From sequence record ON184125: a stretch of 64,000 nt of DNA. One strand, given 5' to 3'. Below are positions 7,638 to 59,306 of the stretch, piece after piece; within the stretch, counting starts at the first letter, position 1, and the number at the start of each line of letters is the position of its first letter. The DNA is from Escherichia phage PC3. The notes under the pieces are model-generated. The model was not told where the DNA came from. It was given only the letters and a program-made list of their open reading frames with translations, and ran no database searches. Made by a program: the position numbers and the translations under genes.

Positions 7638-7943
7638 ATGAAACCGTTTATCGAATATTTTAAAGAACAAGCCGCTAAACCTCAGACCCATGCTGGTGTC
7701 CAGGGTAAGACCGTATCCATCACCAAGCAAGCTGACGGCACTCAGTGGTGCTCCGGTGCTACCGTGACCCAGATCACCCCTGACAATCAGGCGGATGTCT
7801 ACAACCTGGAGTTAACCAACGGCAACACTATCAAGGTGAAACTGACCCCAGACCAGACTCACGGTATCTCCCAAGGTCAGGAAGTCGTTGCTGTCCATGA
7901 CGGTTTCGAATTCTTCTTTGGCAAGTCTGCCGACAAAGACTAA
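7638..7943 (+). CDS. hypothetical small protein, probably late-expressed
   Basis: 101 aa; SD GAGGAG upstream; TATAAATA box upstream. Confidence 0.65.
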   Translation: MKPFIEYFKEQAAKPQTHAGVQGKTVSITKQADGTQWCSGATVTQITPDNQADVYNLELTNGNTIKVKLTPDQTHGISQGQEVVAVHDGFEFFFGKSADKD

Positions 7944-8526: not shown

Positions 8527-8626
8527 ACAAATATTTTGTATAGAGGGCTTGTCGACCACTGTGTATAGCTCAAAGTCGTGATGTAGACTATACTGTGACC
8601 GAAGTGTTCCAGAGGCAGAAGATCTA

Positions 8627-9685
8627 ATGAAATTTCTTGATGAACAATTCATAAATTACGTTGCTCCCAGACTCGATAAATTCAAGTGGGAGCGCGTTGG
8701 TGCTGTCGCAAACTTCCGTTGTCCCCTGTGTGGAGATTCTCTCAAAAGTGCTAATAAGCGACGCGGTTATTTTTTCTTCGATCGAGATAATGACTGCTTC
8801 CGGTTTAAATGTCACAATTGCCATAACATGAATGGCTGGTCATTTGAGTTCTGGCTGAAGAAGTTCGACGAACGCCTCTCAACAGAGTACAACATGGAGA
8901 AGTTCCGTCTGCTGGGTGATACGTCGGGCAGACCACTTCCTTCCCTGAAGCCGTTGCCAAAGCTGACACAGACCGCCCGTATTGGCTCAGTGGCGGCGAA
9001 ACGCGACGAGAGCCTCCTCGGCAATATGCTACGGCTTGATCTGCTACCGCCTGACCATAAGGCTCGACAGTACGTACAGTGGCGTGGACTGCCGGAGAGC
9101 GCTTTGTCCCTCCTGTATTACACACAGCACTTCCGCCAGGATCTACTCCAGTTCGAAACGAACCCTGAGAAGCAGCTGAAAATTCCCGATGACGAGCGCC
9201 TGGTAATCCCATTCTGGACTCAGGATGGTCGCATGAAGATCGTTCAGGGGCGTGCATTCGACAAGAATGCGACACTGCGCTACGCAACAGTCAAGCCCAA
9301 GGATGAAGACACTAAGGTGTATGGTGAAGACCGGGTGAACATTCACAAGACCAAGCTGGTTGTGGAAGGTCCGATTGACAGCCTGTTCCTACCCAACTGT
9401 CTTGCATCGGCCGACGCTGATCTACTGAGCGTGAAGGGTGACATTTATATCCCTGATAATCAGTACCGGAACCCGCAGGTGTGTGACAGTATTCAGAAGA
9501 TGATAGATAAAGGTGTCAAAGTTGTACTGTTCCCACCAGACGTTCCTTGGAAGGATATCAACGACATGGTCATGCCATCAAAGGGCAACATGTCCATACA
9601 AGACCTCCTGAAACTGATCGCCAAGAACGTTTACCAAGGTATGGCTGCATCATTACAATTCGCTGAACTGAGGAAAGTGCGATGA
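8627..9685 (+). CDS. DNA primase (T4 gp61-like)
   Basis: 352 aa; zinc-ribbon CPLCGDS...CHNCHN near N-terminus, central RLVIPFW...QGRAFDK and VEGPIDSLF segments matching my recollection of T4 gp61. Confidence 0.8.
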   Translation: MKFLDEQFINYVAPRLDKFKWERVGAVANFRCPLCGDSLKSANKRRGYFFFDRDNDCFRFKCHNCHNMNGWSFEFWLKKFDERLSTEYNMEKFRLLGDTSGRPLPSLKPLPKLTQTARIGSVAAKRDESLLGNMLRLDLLPPDHKARQYVQWRGLPESALSLLYYTQHFRQDLLQFETNPEKQLKIPDDERLVIPFWTQDGRMKIVQGRAFDKNATLRYATVKPKDEDTKVYGEDRVNIHKTKLVVEGPIDSLFLPNCLASADADLLSVKGDIYIPDNQYRNPQVCDSIQKMIDKGVKVVLFPPDVPWKDINDMVMPSKGNMSIQDLLKLIAKNVYQGMAASLQFAELRKVR

Positions 9686-9888
9686 CGTTAGAAGAACTGA
9701 ACAAACTGGACGACGGAGAGATCGTGCGGGGGTACTTGAAATCTCGTGAGGGGTATGTCTTATCTGGGGAAGAATCTCCGAGTTTCATCCACGGCTGGAA
9801 GAATGGTCAGGCGGACTTCCATGGGGTTCCCATCAGTGATGAGCAAGCCGAATTGGCTCACGAGTTTGTAAGATTTCGCCCGAACTAA
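9682..9888 (+). CDS. hypothetical protein
   Basis: 68 aa, ATGA overlap with primase stop. Confidence 0.45.
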   Translation: MTLEELNKLDDGEIVRGYLKSREGYVLSGEESPSFIHGWKNGQADFHGVPISDEQAELAHEFVRFRPN

Positions 9889-9916
9889 AACTTTTTACTT
9901 CACATTACTTCCCTCC

Positions 9917-9941
9917 AGGCCTCATTCGACGAGGCCTTTTA
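9917..9941 (+). terminator. rho-independent terminator
   Basis: AGGCCTC-attcgac-GAGGCCT followed by TTTT. Confidence 0.7.
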
Positions 9942-9951
9942 AAATACTTCA

Positions 9952-9976
9952 AAAATAATTTTTTAAAAATTATTGA
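9952..9976 (+). repeat. AT-rich palindrome
   Basis: AATAATTTT tt AAAATTATT inverted repeat between terminator and promoter-like box. Confidence 0.5.
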
Positions 9977-9990
9977 AAAAGACTTTACTC

Positions 9991-10015
9991 TTCAATAATG
10001 ATGCACTATTATAGT
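9991..10015 (+). promoter_or_regulatory. promoter-like element (TTCAATAA box + TATTAT/TATAGT -10-like)
   Basis: TTCAATAA at 9991 followed 11-13 nt later by TATTATAGT; member of recurring motif class (see findings). Confidence 0.45.
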
Positions 10016-10085
10016 TCACATAGGGCGGCAACACACCGCCGAATGAAAAGTGAAACGCACCAACTACATTATGAGGAATTACATC

Positions 10086-10574
10086 ATGGCTACTACCAAA
10101 ACTCTGATCACCAACGGCACCATCTCTTTCGAACTGAACACCGAAGTTGCTAAAGTTGAAATGTTCCGCATCGCTCAGGCAGCTGGCTTCACTGGTGGTA
10201 AAACTTCCTTCATGAACCTGCTGAACGGTAAAGTGAAATCGACAAACGGCTTCACCCTGGTAGAGCAGGTTGTGGTTGATAAAGCTGTGGTTGCTAAGAC
10301 TGCCGACAAAGTTGGTATGCTGAAAAACCTGGGTCACGACATCCACATTGTCGAAGCAAACACCGAAACTTACGGCACCATCGTAGTCGGTAAAGGTCGC
10401 ATCCAGCTGAACCCGCTGAACAACGGTTCCTTCTCTGTGATGGTCTTCCCTAAGAAAGGCTACGCAAACGAAGACATCGTGAAAGCGGCTGGTGGTGAAG
10501 CAAAAGCTCAGTACGTCAAAATGGGTAAACTGAGCGCCGACGCAGTTGAAGCTCTGGTGAGCAAACTGGCCTAA
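10086..10574 (+). CDS. hypothetical protein (162 aa) with strongly biased codon usage suggesting high expression
   Basis: MATTKTLITNGT...; near-exclusive use of CTG, GGT, AAC, GAA, ATC, CGC-type codons; own promoter-like box and terminators on both sides. Confidence 0.75.
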   Translation: MATTKTLITNGTISFELNTEVAKVEMFRIAQAAGFTGGKTSFMNLLNGKVKSTNGFTLVEQVVVDKAVVAKTADKVGMLKNLGHDIHIVEANTETYGTIVVGKGRIQLNPLNNGSFSVMVFPKKGYANEDIVKAAGGEAKAQYVKMGKLSADAVEALVSKLA

Positions 10575-10588
10575 GCCAGACGCATAAC

Positions 10589-10621
10589 AGGGGAGGCAAC
10601 TCCCCTCCCATTCAGATTTTT
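10589..10621 (+). terminator. rho-independent terminator
   Basis: AGGGGAG-gcaa-CTCCCCT hairpin with downstream TTTTT. Confidence 0.6.
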
Positions 10622-10635
10622 GGTAGGAGATTACC

Positions 10636-10824
10636 ATGTCCCTCGCAGTCATCCAAGCCTCAGCAGGCACTCTCTGGGTTGCCGACCGCATTCCGAACAA
10701 AGTCTTCCCTCAGTTCCAAGAGGAACTCGAGCAGGTGATGTTGGCAGTCTTGGAAAAATACGGGTACGACGCCGAAGTTCGTACGTCCTTCAAAGAAGTT
10801 ATGCCAGTGGTGGTAGCAAGATGA
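10636..10824 (+). CDS. hypothetical protein
   Basis: 62 aa, SD GGAG upstream. Confidence 0.5.
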   Translation: MSLAVIQASAGTLWVADRIPNKVFPQFQEELEQVMLAVLEKYGYDAEVRTSFKEVMPVVVAR

Positions 10825-11162
10825 ACCAGATCGATATCAAGGTTGAATGGTTCGCGAACAAACGATCTTATTATGCGTTCATATACGCCATAGAATGTTG
10901 TCAGAAACTTCAGAATCTCGCGAATAAGGGATACACATTCATTGACCAATATTCTAATGTTCGGAAGAACTGGGAGATTGAGATCGACGGCTCAGAGTCA
11001 TGTGTACTCCTCGACAGAACATGTTTCGCTGGTGGGGAATGGGTTGAAACTCCAGAAGGGAATAAGATCTGGTGTACCAAGAAAGCCGTTGACAGCTTCT
11101 TGAGACACATCAGATGCATACCACCTTCTAATTTGAAGACTGCTTTGTCCCACGTTTCATAG
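10821..11162 (+). CDS. hypothetical protein
   Basis: 113 aa from ATG overlapping previous stop (ATGA); track ORF 10620 trimmed to Met 68. Confidence 0.5.
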   Translation: MNQIDIKVEWFANKRSYYAFIYAIECCQKLQNLANKGYTFIDQYSNVRKNWEIEIDGSESCVLLDRTCFAGGEWVETPEGNKIWCTKKAVDSFLRHIRCIPPSNLKTALSHVS

Positions 11163-11184
11163 TATAATTCTGTTCCTCGAGTAG

Positions 11185-11202
11185 TTCACTTTCACTTTCA
11201 CT
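11185..11202 (+). repeat. tandem hexamer (TTCACT)x3
   Basis: TTCACTTTCACTTTCACT directly upstream of an SD-sequestering hairpin AAATACCTC...GAGGTATTT (11205-11235). Confidence 0.6.
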
Positions 11203-28210: not shown

Positions 28211-29047
28211 ATGTCATATATTCTTCATGTGGAATCTGGAACCAAAATTGAAATTGAAGGCAAAGACGTTGCTGCTATTCAGGCTGAAATCAAAGAAGCA
28301 GGTCTGATCATCGGAAACGTTACCCTGCGCCGTATGGTTGAAGGTGTTCTTCAGGCTGCCAACGGCTTCGAACTGATTGAAGGTCTGAGCGCCGAAGAGA
28401 AGGAAGAAACCCAGCAGGCTCTGGCGCAAGCCCAAGAGCAAGCCCAAGCTGAAGTATCCCTGAAAGTCGCTGAAACCGTCGATGCTGAAGCACCGATCTC
28501 TGCCGATGCATGTGAAGTCCCAGTGTCCGACGCCCCGGTAGACGCGGTTGAAGATGCCGTCAACGCGGCGCTGGAAGAAGGCAATCAGCCGTCCGACGCG
28601 AAAATCGGTTCCTTGGCGTCTTCGATGCTGAAAGAAGCATCGAAGGGTAAGACCCTGACCCCGCAGGCAGCGCTGGTAGAGCGTAAACGCCGTCACACCA
28701 AACGTGAGGAAATGGTTGACTTGGCTCGCGCTTCTAATCACGGTCCGGTCTTGGCGGCGATTGAAGCTGGTGTTGTCCCCGGCGTGTTCCTGAGCTACGT
28801 GAACCCAGACATGCGTTGGTTCCAGTTCCCGGTCACCGAACTGGCTAACCCTGAAAACCTTCACGCTCGCACCAATACGTATGTCGACGTTGCGCCTATC
28901 GTTTCCGGTGGCTGGGGCTTCAGTCTGTACGTGAACGGCAAGTCCTTCACCAAACGTCAGAAGATCAAAGAGTCTGATGCTGAGTCTCTGGTTAAGGCGA
29001 TCAATGAATGGCTTCCACAGGCTCTGGCTGAAGCGAAAGCTGTGTAA
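28211..29047 (+). CDS. hypothetical protein with acidic Ala/Glu/Gln-rich central region
   Basis: 278 aa. Confidence 0.65.
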   Translation: MSYILHVESGTKIEIEGKDVAAIQAEIKEAGLIIGNVTLRRMVEGVLQAANGFELIEGLSAEEKEETQQALAQAQEQAQAEVSLKVAETVDAEAPISADACEVPVSDAPVDAVEDAVNAALEEGNQPSDAKIGSLASSMLKEASKGKTLTPQAALVERKRRHTKREEMVDLARASNHGPVLAAIEAGVVPGVFLSYVNPDMRWFQFPVTELANPENLHARTNTYVDVAPIVSGGWGFSLYVNGKSFTKRQKIKESDAESLVKAINEWLPQALAEAKAV

Positions 29048-40280: not shown

Positions 40281-40497
40281 CAAGAAGTACATGTACAAGG
40301 TTCTGCTGAGCCTCGGGGTGTCACAATCTGGGCTGGCTCGTTTATTGGATTGTTCTAATGTTGTGAACTACTGGGCGAAGGGTTATCGTGTTGTCCCCCG
40401 CTCCTTCCGTCGCTTCATCCTGGTGTTACAGTTCATCAAGAAGAAAGGGCTGATGGAAGAGTTATTGCAATTTATTAAAGAAGAGGAACGCAAATGA
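40246..40497 (+). CDS. helix-turn-helix DNA-binding protein
   Basis: 83 aa; LSLGVSQSGLARLLDCSNVVNYWAKG resembles XRE-type HTH. Confidence 0.5.
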   Translation: MSLRMKELPVNDKKYMYKVLLSLGVSQSGLARLLDCSNVVNYWAKGYRVVPRSFRRFILVLQFIKKKGLMEELLQFIKEEERK

Positions 40498-41189
40498 ACT
40501 ATACCCGAGCGTTGGTTTCTATCCTTGAAAGGTCTTATTCTCGCAATCTGATTGGGTATTCAGAAAGACACCATAAAGAACCCAGGAGCTTGGGAGGGAC
40601 TGATACTGCGGAGAATATTGCTGTTCTAACTGCTCGGGAACATTTCATAGTTCACAAACTTTTGGCCAAGATATTCAGTATGTCTCCTGCATACGTGAAA
40701 ATCTTTTCTTTGATGAGAAATATATCAAAATCACAAACTTCACGCCAATACGAAGAGTTCGCTCTCAGAAAATGGGAAAGGGTGAAGACAGCTAACAGCA
40801 CTCCAGAGTTTAAACAAAAATGCAGTGAAAGATTCAAGGGGGTGGCGTTATCCCGTGAACACAGATCGAAAATTTCCGATTCGCTGATGGGCAGACCCAA
40901 ATCAGATTCACAACGTTCCAAATTAAAACAAATCCATTCAAAGCCTTGGGAAAGTCCAAATGCGACACATACCCGCAAATATTGGGCTTTGGCAGGAATA
41001 TTCTATGATTGGTGGGTAGCCGATGGTGCCAGGTTAGGCATATGTCGAAATGTAACGATGGTCAAGGAATTGGGGGTGGATCGCGCCGAAATGACCGCCA
41101 AAAGTTGCATACAAAGATTTCAAAAAGGATGGGTGCCGTACAATGATGAGAATTGGGTTAAGTTTTTCGAGGAAATGAAAAATGCGTGA
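40494..41189 (+). CDS. HNH homing endonuclease
   Basis: 231 aa; ERHHKEPRSLGGTDTAENIAVLTAREHFIVH HNH motif; region looks more AT-rich than surrounding genes. Confidence 0.7.
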   Translation: MNYTRALVSILERSYSRNLIGYSERHHKEPRSLGGTDTAENIAVLTAREHFIVHKLLAKIFSMSPAYVKIFSLMRNISKSQTSRQYEEFALRKWERVKTANSTPEFKQKCSERFKGVALSREHRSKISDSLMGRPKSDSQRSKLKQIHSKPWESPNATHTRKYWALAGIFYDWWVADGARLGICRNVTMVKELGVDRAEMTAKSCIQRFQKGWVPYNDENWVKFFEEMKNA

Positions 41190-46775: not shown

Positions 46776-47390
46776 ATGAGCAACTATCTTCAGGGGAAGT
46801 ACACCCCAGTTAATCCCAAGAAGTATCAGGGGAATGTGAATAACATCATCTTCCGCTCTTCGCTGGAGTTGGTGGCTTTCAAGTTCTGTGATATGAACTC
46901 CGCGATAGTGAAGTGGTCTAGTGAGGAGACCGTAATCCCTTACATTTCCCCAGTCGACGGGCGCACCCATCGTTACTTCATGGACCTCAAAGTCTGGACG
47001 CGCCGTGAAGGGCAAGAGGAACTACAGGTCACCCTCATTGAGATCAAGCCCAAAGACCAGATCAAGCAGCCGAAGAAGACTCCGAACATGAAGGAGTCGA
47101 CATTCAACAATGCGATGCGAACCTGGTTGGTCAATTCTGCCAAGTGGGAGGCCACCCGCGAACTGTGTGCCAAGAAGAACTGGAAGTTCATTATATGGAC
47201 TGAAGAGCATCTTGTTCCGGGTGAAGATCCGGATGTTCGTAAACAGTTTGAGCTGAAGTCGAAAAAGAAACGGGATATGGAGATGCAAGATCGCCGACAT
47301 GCCGAACGTGTCAGGGTGCTGAAGGAACAGATGCGGAAGGAGATTAAACCCGCCCCAACGGAGCGGGATGATGGACTGCTCTTACCTTAA
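46776..47390 (+). CDS. hypothetical protein with highly charged C-terminus
   Basis: 204 aa, divergent from the baseplate operon; upstream imperfect palindrome related to the one at 22400. Confidence 0.6.
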   Translation: MSNYLQGKYTPVNPKKYQGNVNNIIFRSSLELVAFKFCDMNSAIVKWSSEETVIPYISPVDGRTHRYFMDLKVWTRREGQEELQVTLIEIKPKDQIKQPKKTPNMKESTFNNAMRTWLVNSAKWEATRELCAKKNWKFIIWTEEHLVPGEDPDVRKQFELKSKKKRDMEMQDRRHAERVRVLKEQMRKEIKPAPTERDDGLLLP

Positions 47391-49248: not shown

Positions 49249-49562
49249 GACAATACTCCTTTCAGAGCTAAAACGGAAAGCACACCAATAATCAACCATG
49301 TCGGGATAATCGGCTTGCAGTTCATGTGGGTTTCTCCACCTTCGATGTTTGGACTTCCTTGTATAAGAACGTGTTCACAGGAAGCTCTGAACGTCATTAC
49401 ACAGCCCATCAACACAATCGGCCTGATATAATAACCCGTTTTAGTTTGCTTCACGATACATGGAGAGGAGAAGCGCAGATATGGATCCCCTTTCCGGTAG
49501 CCTGTGATTGTGACCTTCTGCACTTCAGAAGGCACCTTTTGGCCAGGAAAATAAATTTTCAT
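49245..49562 (-). CDS. hypothetical protein
   Basis: 105 aa, ATGA-coupled. Confidence 0.5.
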
Positions 49563-50119
49563 ATTTCAATCCCCAGATTGGTGTATAACAACTCAGACAG
49601 GGTTACAGGACGCTTGAATTGTTCCCAACTACAGTTCAGGTATTCACGTTCTTCACGCATTTCACTGTGAAGATGACCATGGATATTATACGCCCAGCGG
49701 TCCAATTGATAAGGAACGTGAGTGGTCAGCACACGACCAACCGGAGTATCACGCTCATACATCGCACCAAAGGAGCTAATCCATCCCTCTTGATACAGCT
49801 GCATCAACATCTTGAATCTGTCATGGTTGCCTTGCGCCACCCTGATGATAAAGTTCGGTCGCCAGTCATCGGGAACCGGGCGGCGCTTGAACTCATCAAT
49901 ATTCCTCTTGGCACCCTCGCGCATCAGGCGAATGAACCCCTCAGCCCCGATGAAGCAGATGTCCCCAGCCAGTTCAAGGACGTCTCGGGACTTCAGCCCC
50001 TGAAAGATACTGTCGATAACTGCAGCATCATGCGCCTCTTGGGTATCGAACCCACGGGGCTTGAAGACCTTCTTGTGTCCGAGGTGGGTGTCGCCCAGAT
50101 ATTTTACAATTCCTGCCAT
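49559..50119 (-). CDS. calcineurin-like metallophosphoesterase
   Basis: About 186 aa; GDTHLG, GNHD and HGHLH metal-binding motifs; start at Met 7 (TAATG coupling) or 50137. Confidence 0.7.
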
Positions 50120-58805: not shown

Positions 58806-59306
58806 CTAGCCCAGAAACACTACTAAAGTCAAATTAGTGAGGGCGCTGCGACCTTCCCGCAGCATTTCATGCGCAGATGCAAGGCGCTTGGGGTCATGCA
58901 ACGTATCAGAGAACACGATGATGTTTGCTTTATCGATGTCCGTGCCCATGTAATGGGAGATGGTTGTCGTGTGCTGTTTCTTGTCTACATCGGGCAATGA
59001 TACATCCGCGCCTGCTCGGGAGCGGAAGAAAGAATCGCGTTCACTAACGCTATGGAAGACACCCATGATGTTGAGGTTGTTCTCTGTCTGGAAATCATAG
59101 GACAGAATCTTCTTCAGCGCGGCGGTGTGCCCAGTCTGGCGCAGCATGCGATAGTACAGTATGTTTCCAGGACAGGTGGGGTCCGTCACACCTCCCCTCG
59201 ATTGGCGATCTTTCTGGATTTCATACGCATCCAGGATAAGTTGTTGGACCATTTCAATATGGGCAGTCAGGGAGATTTCGACTTTACGTTTGACCATGGA
59301 TTTCAT
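58806..59306 (-). CDS. hypothetical protein
   Basis: 166 aa. Confidence 0.55.
   Translation of the reverse strand: MKSMVKRKVEISLTAHIEMVQQLILDAYEIQKDRQSRGGVTDPTCPGNILYYRMLRQTGHTAALKKILSYDFQTENNLNIMGVFHSVSERDSFFRSRAGADVSLPDVDKKQHTTTISHYMGTDIDKANIIVFSDTLHDPKRLASAHEMLREGRSALTNLTLVVFLG

Follow-up and report, generated by a model that had tools for sequence, protein, structure and literature searches.

Introduction

Gp32 of bacteriophage T4 and TF1 of bacteriophage SPO1 bind nucleic acids stoichiometrically and are abundant in the replication phase; TF1 is the HU-type protein of a phage whose DNA contains hydroxymethyluracil. T4 Alc terminates transcription on unmodified cytosine DNA. Phages of the family Ackermannviridae, such as ViI, CBA120, and LIMEstone, are widely used in biocontrol and typing, and no function has been assigned to half of their genes. 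These phages are devoid of MotA, AsiA, and Alt.

A 2024 review of the Ackermannviridae contains no mention of "transcription" or "promoter", and our literature search found no transcriptome or infected-cell proteome for the family. A regulatory motif of this phage group, TTCAAT[N14]TATAAT, was named in the EspM4VN paper (PMC7283392). With respect to virion composition, gel-slice mass spectrometry of LIMEstone1 identified 39 proteins, among them PhoH, ligase, and gp44 in traces, and the hypothetical proteins reported in the Sajous1 virion are gp29, 120, 153, and 215–217.

Here, we analyzed a short gene located at positions 10086..10574 of a 64,000-nucleotide stretch of DNA, the whole of which is referred to as the window. 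The initial annotation, made from the sequence, had singled out this gene for an extreme high-expression codon bias and had placed it on a transcription unit of its own.

Materials and Methods

Over bases 9600–11200, the window shows 100% identity with Escherichia phage PH4 (ON184126.1; Ackermannviridae, Aglimvirinae), and it corresponds to positions 64001–128000 of the PH4 record. The 155,895-bp PH4 genome, with its 190 genes, was used as the genome-wide reference. The codon adaptation index (CAI) was calculated for all annotated genes with E. coli weights only, those of Sharp and Li (1987). The motA and alc genes of T4 were retrieved, an alignment of the Alc family was built, and profile–profile comparisons were carried out with hhalign.

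Results

The Gene Is Found in Every Ackermannviridae Genus Examined

The gene corresponds to PH4_000083, annotated as a "hypothetical protein", and lies directly downstream of the primase gene, within the replication module; its orthologue in LIMEstone1 is ORF073. A tblastn search retrieved it from 354 phage records, all of them annotating it as hypothetical, from phages infecting Salmonella, Vibrio, Klebsiella, Escherichia, Dickeya, Serratia, Shigella, Erwinia, and Aeromonas. It was present in every genus of the family that was examined (Agtrevirus, Limestonevirus, Kuttervirus, Taipeivirus, and Nezavisimistyvirus) and in Vibrio phages. An exhaustive profile search over 1.84 billion cluster representatives returned just 37 matches to the family; no cellular homologue was found among these proteins, and all the genomic contexts examined were those of phages. 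One distant member is encoded in a T4-like replication module, beside a 5-hydroxymethyluracil DNA kinase, the clamp loader, and RegA. The protein matches phrog_3764 (2e-91) and its paralogue, described below, phrog_3905. As both are listed as being of "unknown function", PHROG membership is uninformative on mechanism.

In the neighboring primase region (window 8624..9685), the PH4 annotation seems to be truncated. The GenBank coding sequence starts at 8828 and an antisense coding sequence (8624..8824, − strand) is annotated over the missing N-terminus; the ORF 8627..9685 (352 aa, starting with MKFLDEQFINYV) matches the full-length primases of LIMEstone1 and Klebsiella phage 0507-KN2-1.

The features of the locus are listed in Table 1. 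When the coding sequence was compared with that of SFP10, the substitutions were distributed over the three sense codon positions as 8/3/39, position 3 thus being favored, and the same locus showed 39 amino-acid changes if read in the antisense frame, against nine in the sense frame. The comparative evidence shows a genuine protein-coding gene under purifying selection.

A longer frame starting at 10050 and a 245-aa antisense ORF had both been suspected to be artefacts, and the orthologous sequences bear this out. In the orthologues of Klebsiella phage 0507-KN2-1 and Vibrio phage 207E48.1, in-frame stop codons precede the ATG by 12–15 nt, which fixes the start codon of the gene, and the GAGG of the ribosome-binding site falls within the upstream extension. 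The antisense ORF is interrupted by two stop codons in the Erwinia phage orthologue and by seven in the Vibrio phage orthologue. It is in exact codon register with the sense gene and is open because the latter contains no TTA, CTA, or TCA codon. In Vibrio phage D509 (1387–1500 of the retrieved locus), the orthologue is annotated with a start that falls on the TATAAT of its promoter-like site, and similarity begins about 38 codons into the annotated protein; this start was probably mis-annotated, giving an apparent N-terminal extension.

Table 1. Coordinates (window positions) of the features of the locus and of the paralogous gene.
Feature	Coordinates	Strand	Description	Basis
Intrinsic terminator ending the primase operon	9917..9941	+	AGGCCTC-N7-GAGGCCT followed by TTTT	Fold, conserved stem, LIMEstone1 annotation
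AT-rich tract	9954..9974	+	AATAATTTTT/AAAAATTATT	Perfect 10+10 palindrome in PH4, 100% complementary
Promoter-like site	9991..10015	+	TTCAAT-N13-TATAGT, with the TTCAATAA box (9991..9998) as upstream half	Motif enrichment, conservation
Hairpin at or near the mRNA 5' end	10019..10045	+	Core GGCGG-N7-CCGCC at 10024..10040	Fold, conservation
Upstream in-frame extension	10050..10085	+	GTG 10050, ATG 10071; not translated with the protein	In-frame stops in orthologues
Shine-Dalgarno sequence	10073..10078	+	GAGGAA, 9 nt upstream of the ATG	Read from the sequence
Coding sequence	10086..10574	+	162 aa, 17.2 kDa, pI 9.4, phrog_3764	CAI/ENC, PHROG, AlphaFold2, position-3 substitutions
Antisense "shadow" ORF	9963..10700	−	245 aa; not a gene	Codon register with the sense gene, stops in orthologues
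GC-rich tetraloop hairpin	10589..10606	+	AGGGGAG-GCAA-CTCCCCT	Fold, conserved position
Paralogue	28211..29047	+	278 aa, phrog_3905 (1e-134), CAI 0.49	N-domain profile match

The Codon Usage Is More Biased than That of the Capsid Gene

The codon usage is as expected of a highly expressed enterobacterial gene: CTG is used for all 12 leucines, AAC for all 11 asparagines, TTC for all seven phenylalanines, TAC for all three tyrosines, GGT or GGC for all 16 glycines, and AAA for 15 of the 17 lysines. With a CAI of 0.710, the gene stands apart from the other genes of the window (rank 1 of 90; mean 0.337, sd 0.088, z = 4.7), and it is also ranked first among the 190 genes of PH4 (mean 0.348, sd 0.092). 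Behind it in the genome came gp23, the major head protein (0.662), followed by a hypothetical protein of 123 aa (0.644), an HU-like protein (0.603), and the core protein gp22 (0.565). The effective number of codons (ENC), for which no reference set is needed, was 30.8, the lowest in the window. Orthologues displayed similarly low ENC values down to about 43% protein identity (30.9 in LIMEstone1, 31.4 in Klebsiella phage 0507-KN2-1, 33.3 in Erwinia phage Bue1, and 30.2 in Vibrio phage 207E48.1), compared with 42–61 for the genes neighboring these orthologues. The extreme bias noted in the initial annotation is thus confirmed, exceeds that of the capsid gene, and is conserved across genera.

Other genes with particular codon usage were observed. 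The second-highest CAI of the window (0.56) belongs to a gene encoding a 101-aa protein (7638..7943, + strand) with a weak match to TOBE, a molybdate-binding domain (E 0.004); this protein is probably the Sajous1 virion protein gp215, called BiMOP-like by the Sajous1 authors. The 123-aa hypothetical protein ranked third in the genome (phrog_2018, CAI 0.644) is encoded outside the window, at positions 49432–49803 of the PH4 record, and is probably another abundant protein without an assigned function. At the other end of the scale, a homing endonuclease gene (window 40494..41189, + strand) has the lowest CAI of the window (0.18) and a low GC content (0.42), both as expected for a recently acquired mobile element.

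The Gene Is Flanked by Conserved Regulatory Elements

The hairpin of the upstream terminator was predicted to fold with −12.2 kcal/mol (z = −4.4), and none of 200 shuffled sequences was as stable. Over four genera, its stem is invariant and its loop variable, as seen in LIMEstone1, SFP10, and Klebsiella phage 0507-KN2-1. In the LIMEstone1 record, ORF073 is preceded by an annotated terminator and by a "putative middle promoter", at matching positions. The AT-rich palindrome described earlier is present as well and is perfect in PH4. In relatives of PH4, the AT-richness is kept and the palindrome is not, so that the tract is probably an UP-element-like region upstream of the promoter rather than an operator.

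The TTCAATAA box was likewise found, within a promoter-like site located 71 nt upstream of the ATG. This site departs from the class TTCAAT[N14]TATAAT by one base in the spacing and one base in the −10 element, and is invariant over four genera. An alternative, overlapping sigma-70-like site (TTTACT-17-TATTAT) is located at 9984..10012.

Transcription would start near 10020, and the leader would fold at once into the GGCGG/CCGCC hairpin, which probably acts as a stabilizer. The fold of 10018..10090 has a predicted energy of −14.8 kcal/mol (z = −2.1), and the GGGCGG...CCGCC of the leader hairpin is retained even in Erwinia phage Bue1, with a different loop. No RNA family was detected by Rfam over 9700..10900. 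The ATGAGG sequence at the ribosome-binding site is conserved in five of five aligned phages, and PH4 and the Klebsiella phage share 87% identity over the block extending from TTGAAAAAG to the ATG, compared with 74% for the coding sequence.

The situation is less clear-cut downstream of the gene, where a second terminator had been proposed. A stable hairpin is indeed conserved in this position, its sequence differing among six phages (for example, GCGGGG-TTCG-CCCCGC in the Erwinia phage and GAGGGGG-TTCG-CCCCCTC in the Vibrio phage), but there is no adjacent U-tract, as the U-run (10617..10621) begins 10 nt past the stem, and a scan for consensus terminators made no call at 10589..10606. The hairpin thus departs from the textbook form of a terminator, and transcripts may run on into the small genes that follow; it is likely a 3' stabilizer or a leaky terminator.

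Together, these predicted elements (terminator, AT-rich tract, promoter-like site, 5' hairpin, strong ribosome-binding site, ORF, and 3' hairpin) support the assignment of the gene to its own short unit, the upstream end of which is marked by a canonical terminator and the regulatory block of which is better conserved than the coding sequence. From the codon usage and these signals, we infer that the gene is highly expressed. As its codon usage is stronger than that of the capsid gene and as it appears to have its own promoter, its product is probably among the most abundant proteins of the infected cell.

The Promoter-Like Site Belongs to a Class Found Upstream of Replication Genes

A relaxed form of the motif, TTCAAT-N12-15-TATANT, matched the window six times, always on the + strand, for 0.1 matches expected. 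In the whole genome, 10 matches were found, of which nine are intergenic, 29–115 nt from a start codon. Sites of this type precede nrdA (13006), gp32 (24064), the thymidylate synthase/dUTPase operon (29066), and a few other non-structural genes. Further sites were observed at 22892 and 37870 (+) of the window and at 47275, 51167, 139104 (−), and 151101 (−) of the PH4 record. The TTCAAT box lies 3–4 nt nearer to the −10 element than expected of a −35 hexamer for sigma-70, a spacing that may point to an unknown activator.

A second motif of the family, CTAAATAYC, is found in front of the tailspike, sheath, and baseplate genes. Neither this late-type motif nor that of T4, TATAAATA, was found within 9886–10085. 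The gene shares the promoter-like class of gp32, nrdA, and the thymidylate synthase operon, and not CTAAATAYC, and was therefore grouped with the replication and nucleotide-metabolism genes.

The Protein Is Predicted to Comprise Two Domains and Has a Paralogue

Structure prediction had been suggested as a check on the initial annotation. AlphaFold2 (mean pLDDT 84) resolved the 162-aa protein into two confidently predicted domains, an N-domain (residues 1–64, beta-beta-alpha-alpha-beta) and a C-domain (residues 75–162, alpha-beta4-alpha-beta-alpha). They are joined by a flexible linker (residues 65–74); residues 64–71 have pLDDT values below 50 and are predicted to be disordered. In distant homologues, the linker is 40–83 residues long and rich in Ala, Pro, and Glu. 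The protein has a net charge of +5 and contains no cysteine. Among 38 family members, the pI of the C-domain is at least 8.9 in 31 and its net charge positive in 36, and that of the N-domain ranges from 4.4 to 10.2. Three residues of the C-domain, Arg105, Lys124, and Tyr143, are near-invariant.

When an N-domain profile was compared with the 190 PH4 proteins, the product of 28211..29047 was found at E 2.8e-4 (hhalign E 3.7e-4). This 278-aa protein shares the N-domain, followed by a long acidic linker rich in Glu, Ala, and Gln and by a C-terminal part in which a "P..GG.FSLYV" strand recurs in similar form; the C-terminal likeness was seen by eye and was not detected by hhalign. The distant family members P0084, P0085, and P0091 resemble this longer type. 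By gene order, the paralogue would correspond to Sajous1 gp29, for which 10 spectra were obtained from purified virions.

Comparisons with Known Families Gave Leads at Most

No significant match to the 162-aa protein was found in Pfam, NCBIfam, PADLOC, PDB sequences, or fold searches. The only matches in the family libraries, divDNAB (E 0.09) and GlcV (19 bits for a cut-off of 450), were treated as noise. A likeness to ribosomal P0/uL10 in PDB sequences (E 0.05–0.7 with the full-length profile) faded to E >= 1 with the N-domain profile. Designer pentatricopeptide proteins reached E 2e-8 with the N-domain profile as the sum of nine repeats of about 3 bits each, reflecting a helix-loop-helix pattern. 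This artefact also explains proteins of about 1800 aa retrieved in the exhaustive profile search, and the same summing of repeats, and not homology, accounts for the match of the C-domain profile to staphylococcal Atl repeats (SH3b/GW-type).

The sequence AGFTGGKT fits the P-loop pattern of PROSITE ([AG]x4GK[ST]), but a P-loop was rejected: homologues have Arg or Gln in place of its Lys, and the motif follows a helix and precedes another, instead of following a strand. A role in a lysis cassette, considered because two small ORFs separate the gene from that of the endolysin downstream, was discarded, the protein and both small ORFs being devoid of hydrophobic segments.

Among viral models, Foldseek found family members in the Vibrio phages Kuja and YC, and the sole functionally named match in BFVD was an "ALC protein" (E 0.16, probability 0.75, TM 0.39), a weak resemblance. 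The hhalign comparison with Alc gave a non-significant alignment (E 0.09–0.15, probability 0.4–0.6%), co-linear over 87–89 columns, and Pfam Alc (PF17527) was not matched at E <= 1. With T4 MotA, the family profile aligned over 13 columns at a probability of 1.1%, and Pfam gave no match. The exhaustive search of 1.84 billion proteins retrieved no relative of Alc or MotA. The profile and fold resemblances to Alc and MotA are thus weak and were taken as leads, not as evidence of membership in these families.

The Protein Is Absent from the LIMEstone1 Virion Proteome

ORF073 is not among the 39 proteins detected by mass spectrometry in LIMEstone1 virions, although contaminants such as PhoH were detected. 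Similarly, no gene at the position of 10086..10574, as mapped by gene order, is represented in the list of hypothetical proteins of the Sajous1 virion.

Discussion

Taken together, these data suggest that the 162-aa protein is probably an abundant non-virion protein of the replication phase. Our best overall explanation, which we put forward tentatively, is that such a protein would be a stoichiometric binder of nucleic acid or of a partner. The gene is probably switched on with the replication and nucleotide-metabolism genes, early to mid-infection, its product being made in capsid-like amounts and not built into virions. It would work by stoichiometric binding and not by catalysis. The basic alpha+beta C-domain, with Arg105, Lys124, and Tyr143, may bind a polyanion, for which phage DNA or RNA would be the most plausible candidate; the N-domain may serve to dock the protein, either to itself or to some partner common with the 278-aa paralogue; and the linker of variable length would tether the two domains.

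A nucleic-acid-binding accessory role is the mechanism that we consider most likely, but it is, as a separate claim, somewhat doubtful. No nucleic-acid-binding family was matched in Pfam, NCBIfam, or PDB sequences, and the net charge of only +5 also counts against binding. Moreover, PH4 itself encodes gp32 (24163..25179) and an HU/TF1-like protein, so that there is no obvious need for a further DNA binder in large amounts.

An unlikely, but still appreciable, alternative is that the protein binds, again stoichiometrically, an abundant host protein or a small molecule and serves to take over the host or to counter its defences. In this case, the UEV/RWD-like C-domain would be a protein-interaction module, and large amounts would be needed because the target to be titrated is itself plentiful, as are RNA polymerase, nucleoid proteins, RecA, and the ribosome.

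It is distinctly unlikely that the protein is a take-over factor of the MotA or Alc kind, that is, either the missing activator acting at the TTCAAT box or a blocker of transcription from unmodified host DNA, the thymidine of the phage being hypermodified. All the profile signals pointing in this direction were non-significant, with no match to Pfam Alc and no relative among 1.84 billion proteins, and codon optimization to the level of a capsid gene is not needed by a transcription factor. The activator version meets a further difficulty: the gene is itself located behind a TTCAAT-type site and could not start its own promoter class. A more specific proposal, slightly less probable again, is that the take-over factor missing from the Ackermannviridae is this protein, perhaps acting with its 278-aa paralogue, and that it is very distantly Alc/MotA-like. 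Its basic C-domain would read the thymidine hypermodification, and the protein would either silence host DNA, which is unmodified, at the level of transcription or guide RNA polymerase to those TTCAAT-box promoters that serve replication genes.

Capsid-like amounts could also be explained by an assembly protein that leaves before maturation, such as a scaffold or a chaperone, or by a loosely bound decoration protein lost during purification. This is improbable, considering that no late-type promoter motif precedes the gene, that the gene is part of the replication module and distant from the head genes, that the protein is absent from the LIMEstone1 virion, and that the phage has its own core protein, gp22. 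Finally, codon bias unrelated to expression, arising by chance in a short gene or by recent transfer from a highly expressed host gene, is very improbable: CAI is noisier in short genes and our weights were those of E. coli only, but the reference-free ENC agrees, the bias recurs in orthologues of 43–70% identity from phages of Klebsiella, Erwinia, and Vibrio, and the family has no cellular homologues, its 37 cluster representatives among 1.84 billion coming, in all contexts examined, from phages.

Our literature search found no publication on the codon optimization of this gene, the link of its promoter class to replication genes, its domain architecture, or its paralogue. A gene present across the family and codon-optimized beyond the capsid gene marks a protein probably needed in very large amounts for an undescribed step. 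Its role, once known, could explain host takeover or the organization of hypermodified DNA in phages without MotA, AsiA, and Alt. In addition, the compact cassette formed by the promoter, leader, and hairpin may be suitable as a strong expression module in phage engineering. The gene is a worthwhile experimental target.

Several known proteins can be compared with the 162-aa protein. Its resemblance to UBC/RWD/UEV-like folds, alpha+beta sandwich domains made of a helix, a four-stranded antiparallel meander, and C-terminal helices, is weak, and E2 enzymes of the UBC type carry a catalytic cysteine after strand 4, in contrast to the present protein, which has no cysteine. It does not match the Bac_DNA_binding domain of the HU/IHF type II (TF1-like) proteins. 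An HU-family protein is encoded elsewhere in PH4 (record positions 58821..59099, outside the window), where it is annotated as "transcription factor" (Bac_DNA_binding 6e-30, CAI 0.60, fourth in the genome); it is reminiscent of TF1 of SPO1, another phage with modified thymidine.

T4 MotA, the activator of middle promoters, has a DNA-binding C-domain of the "double wing" fold and an N-domain that binds sigma-70. This N-domain is all-helical, unlike the beta-beta-alpha-alpha-beta N-domain predicted here, and a regulator would not be expected to show so extreme a codon bias. T4 Alc has a similar length, the non-significant alignment with it is co-linear across the whole C-domain and both C-termini, and both phages have modified DNA; however, the conserved Alc motifs NxTQPNV, RLGI, and DDI are absent from the family described here.

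The comparison with T4 gp32 and SPO1 TF1 is one of type and not of descent. The 162-aa protein, a putative nucleic-acid binder, has no OB fold, zinc site, or HU fold and no sequence relationship with either of them. The likeness lies in the small size, the high expression suggested here by codon usage and signals, and the dedicated strong promoter predicted here together with a structured leader. It also extends to expression alongside replication genes, as deduced here, to absence from the virion, and to the setting of a phage with modified thymidine.
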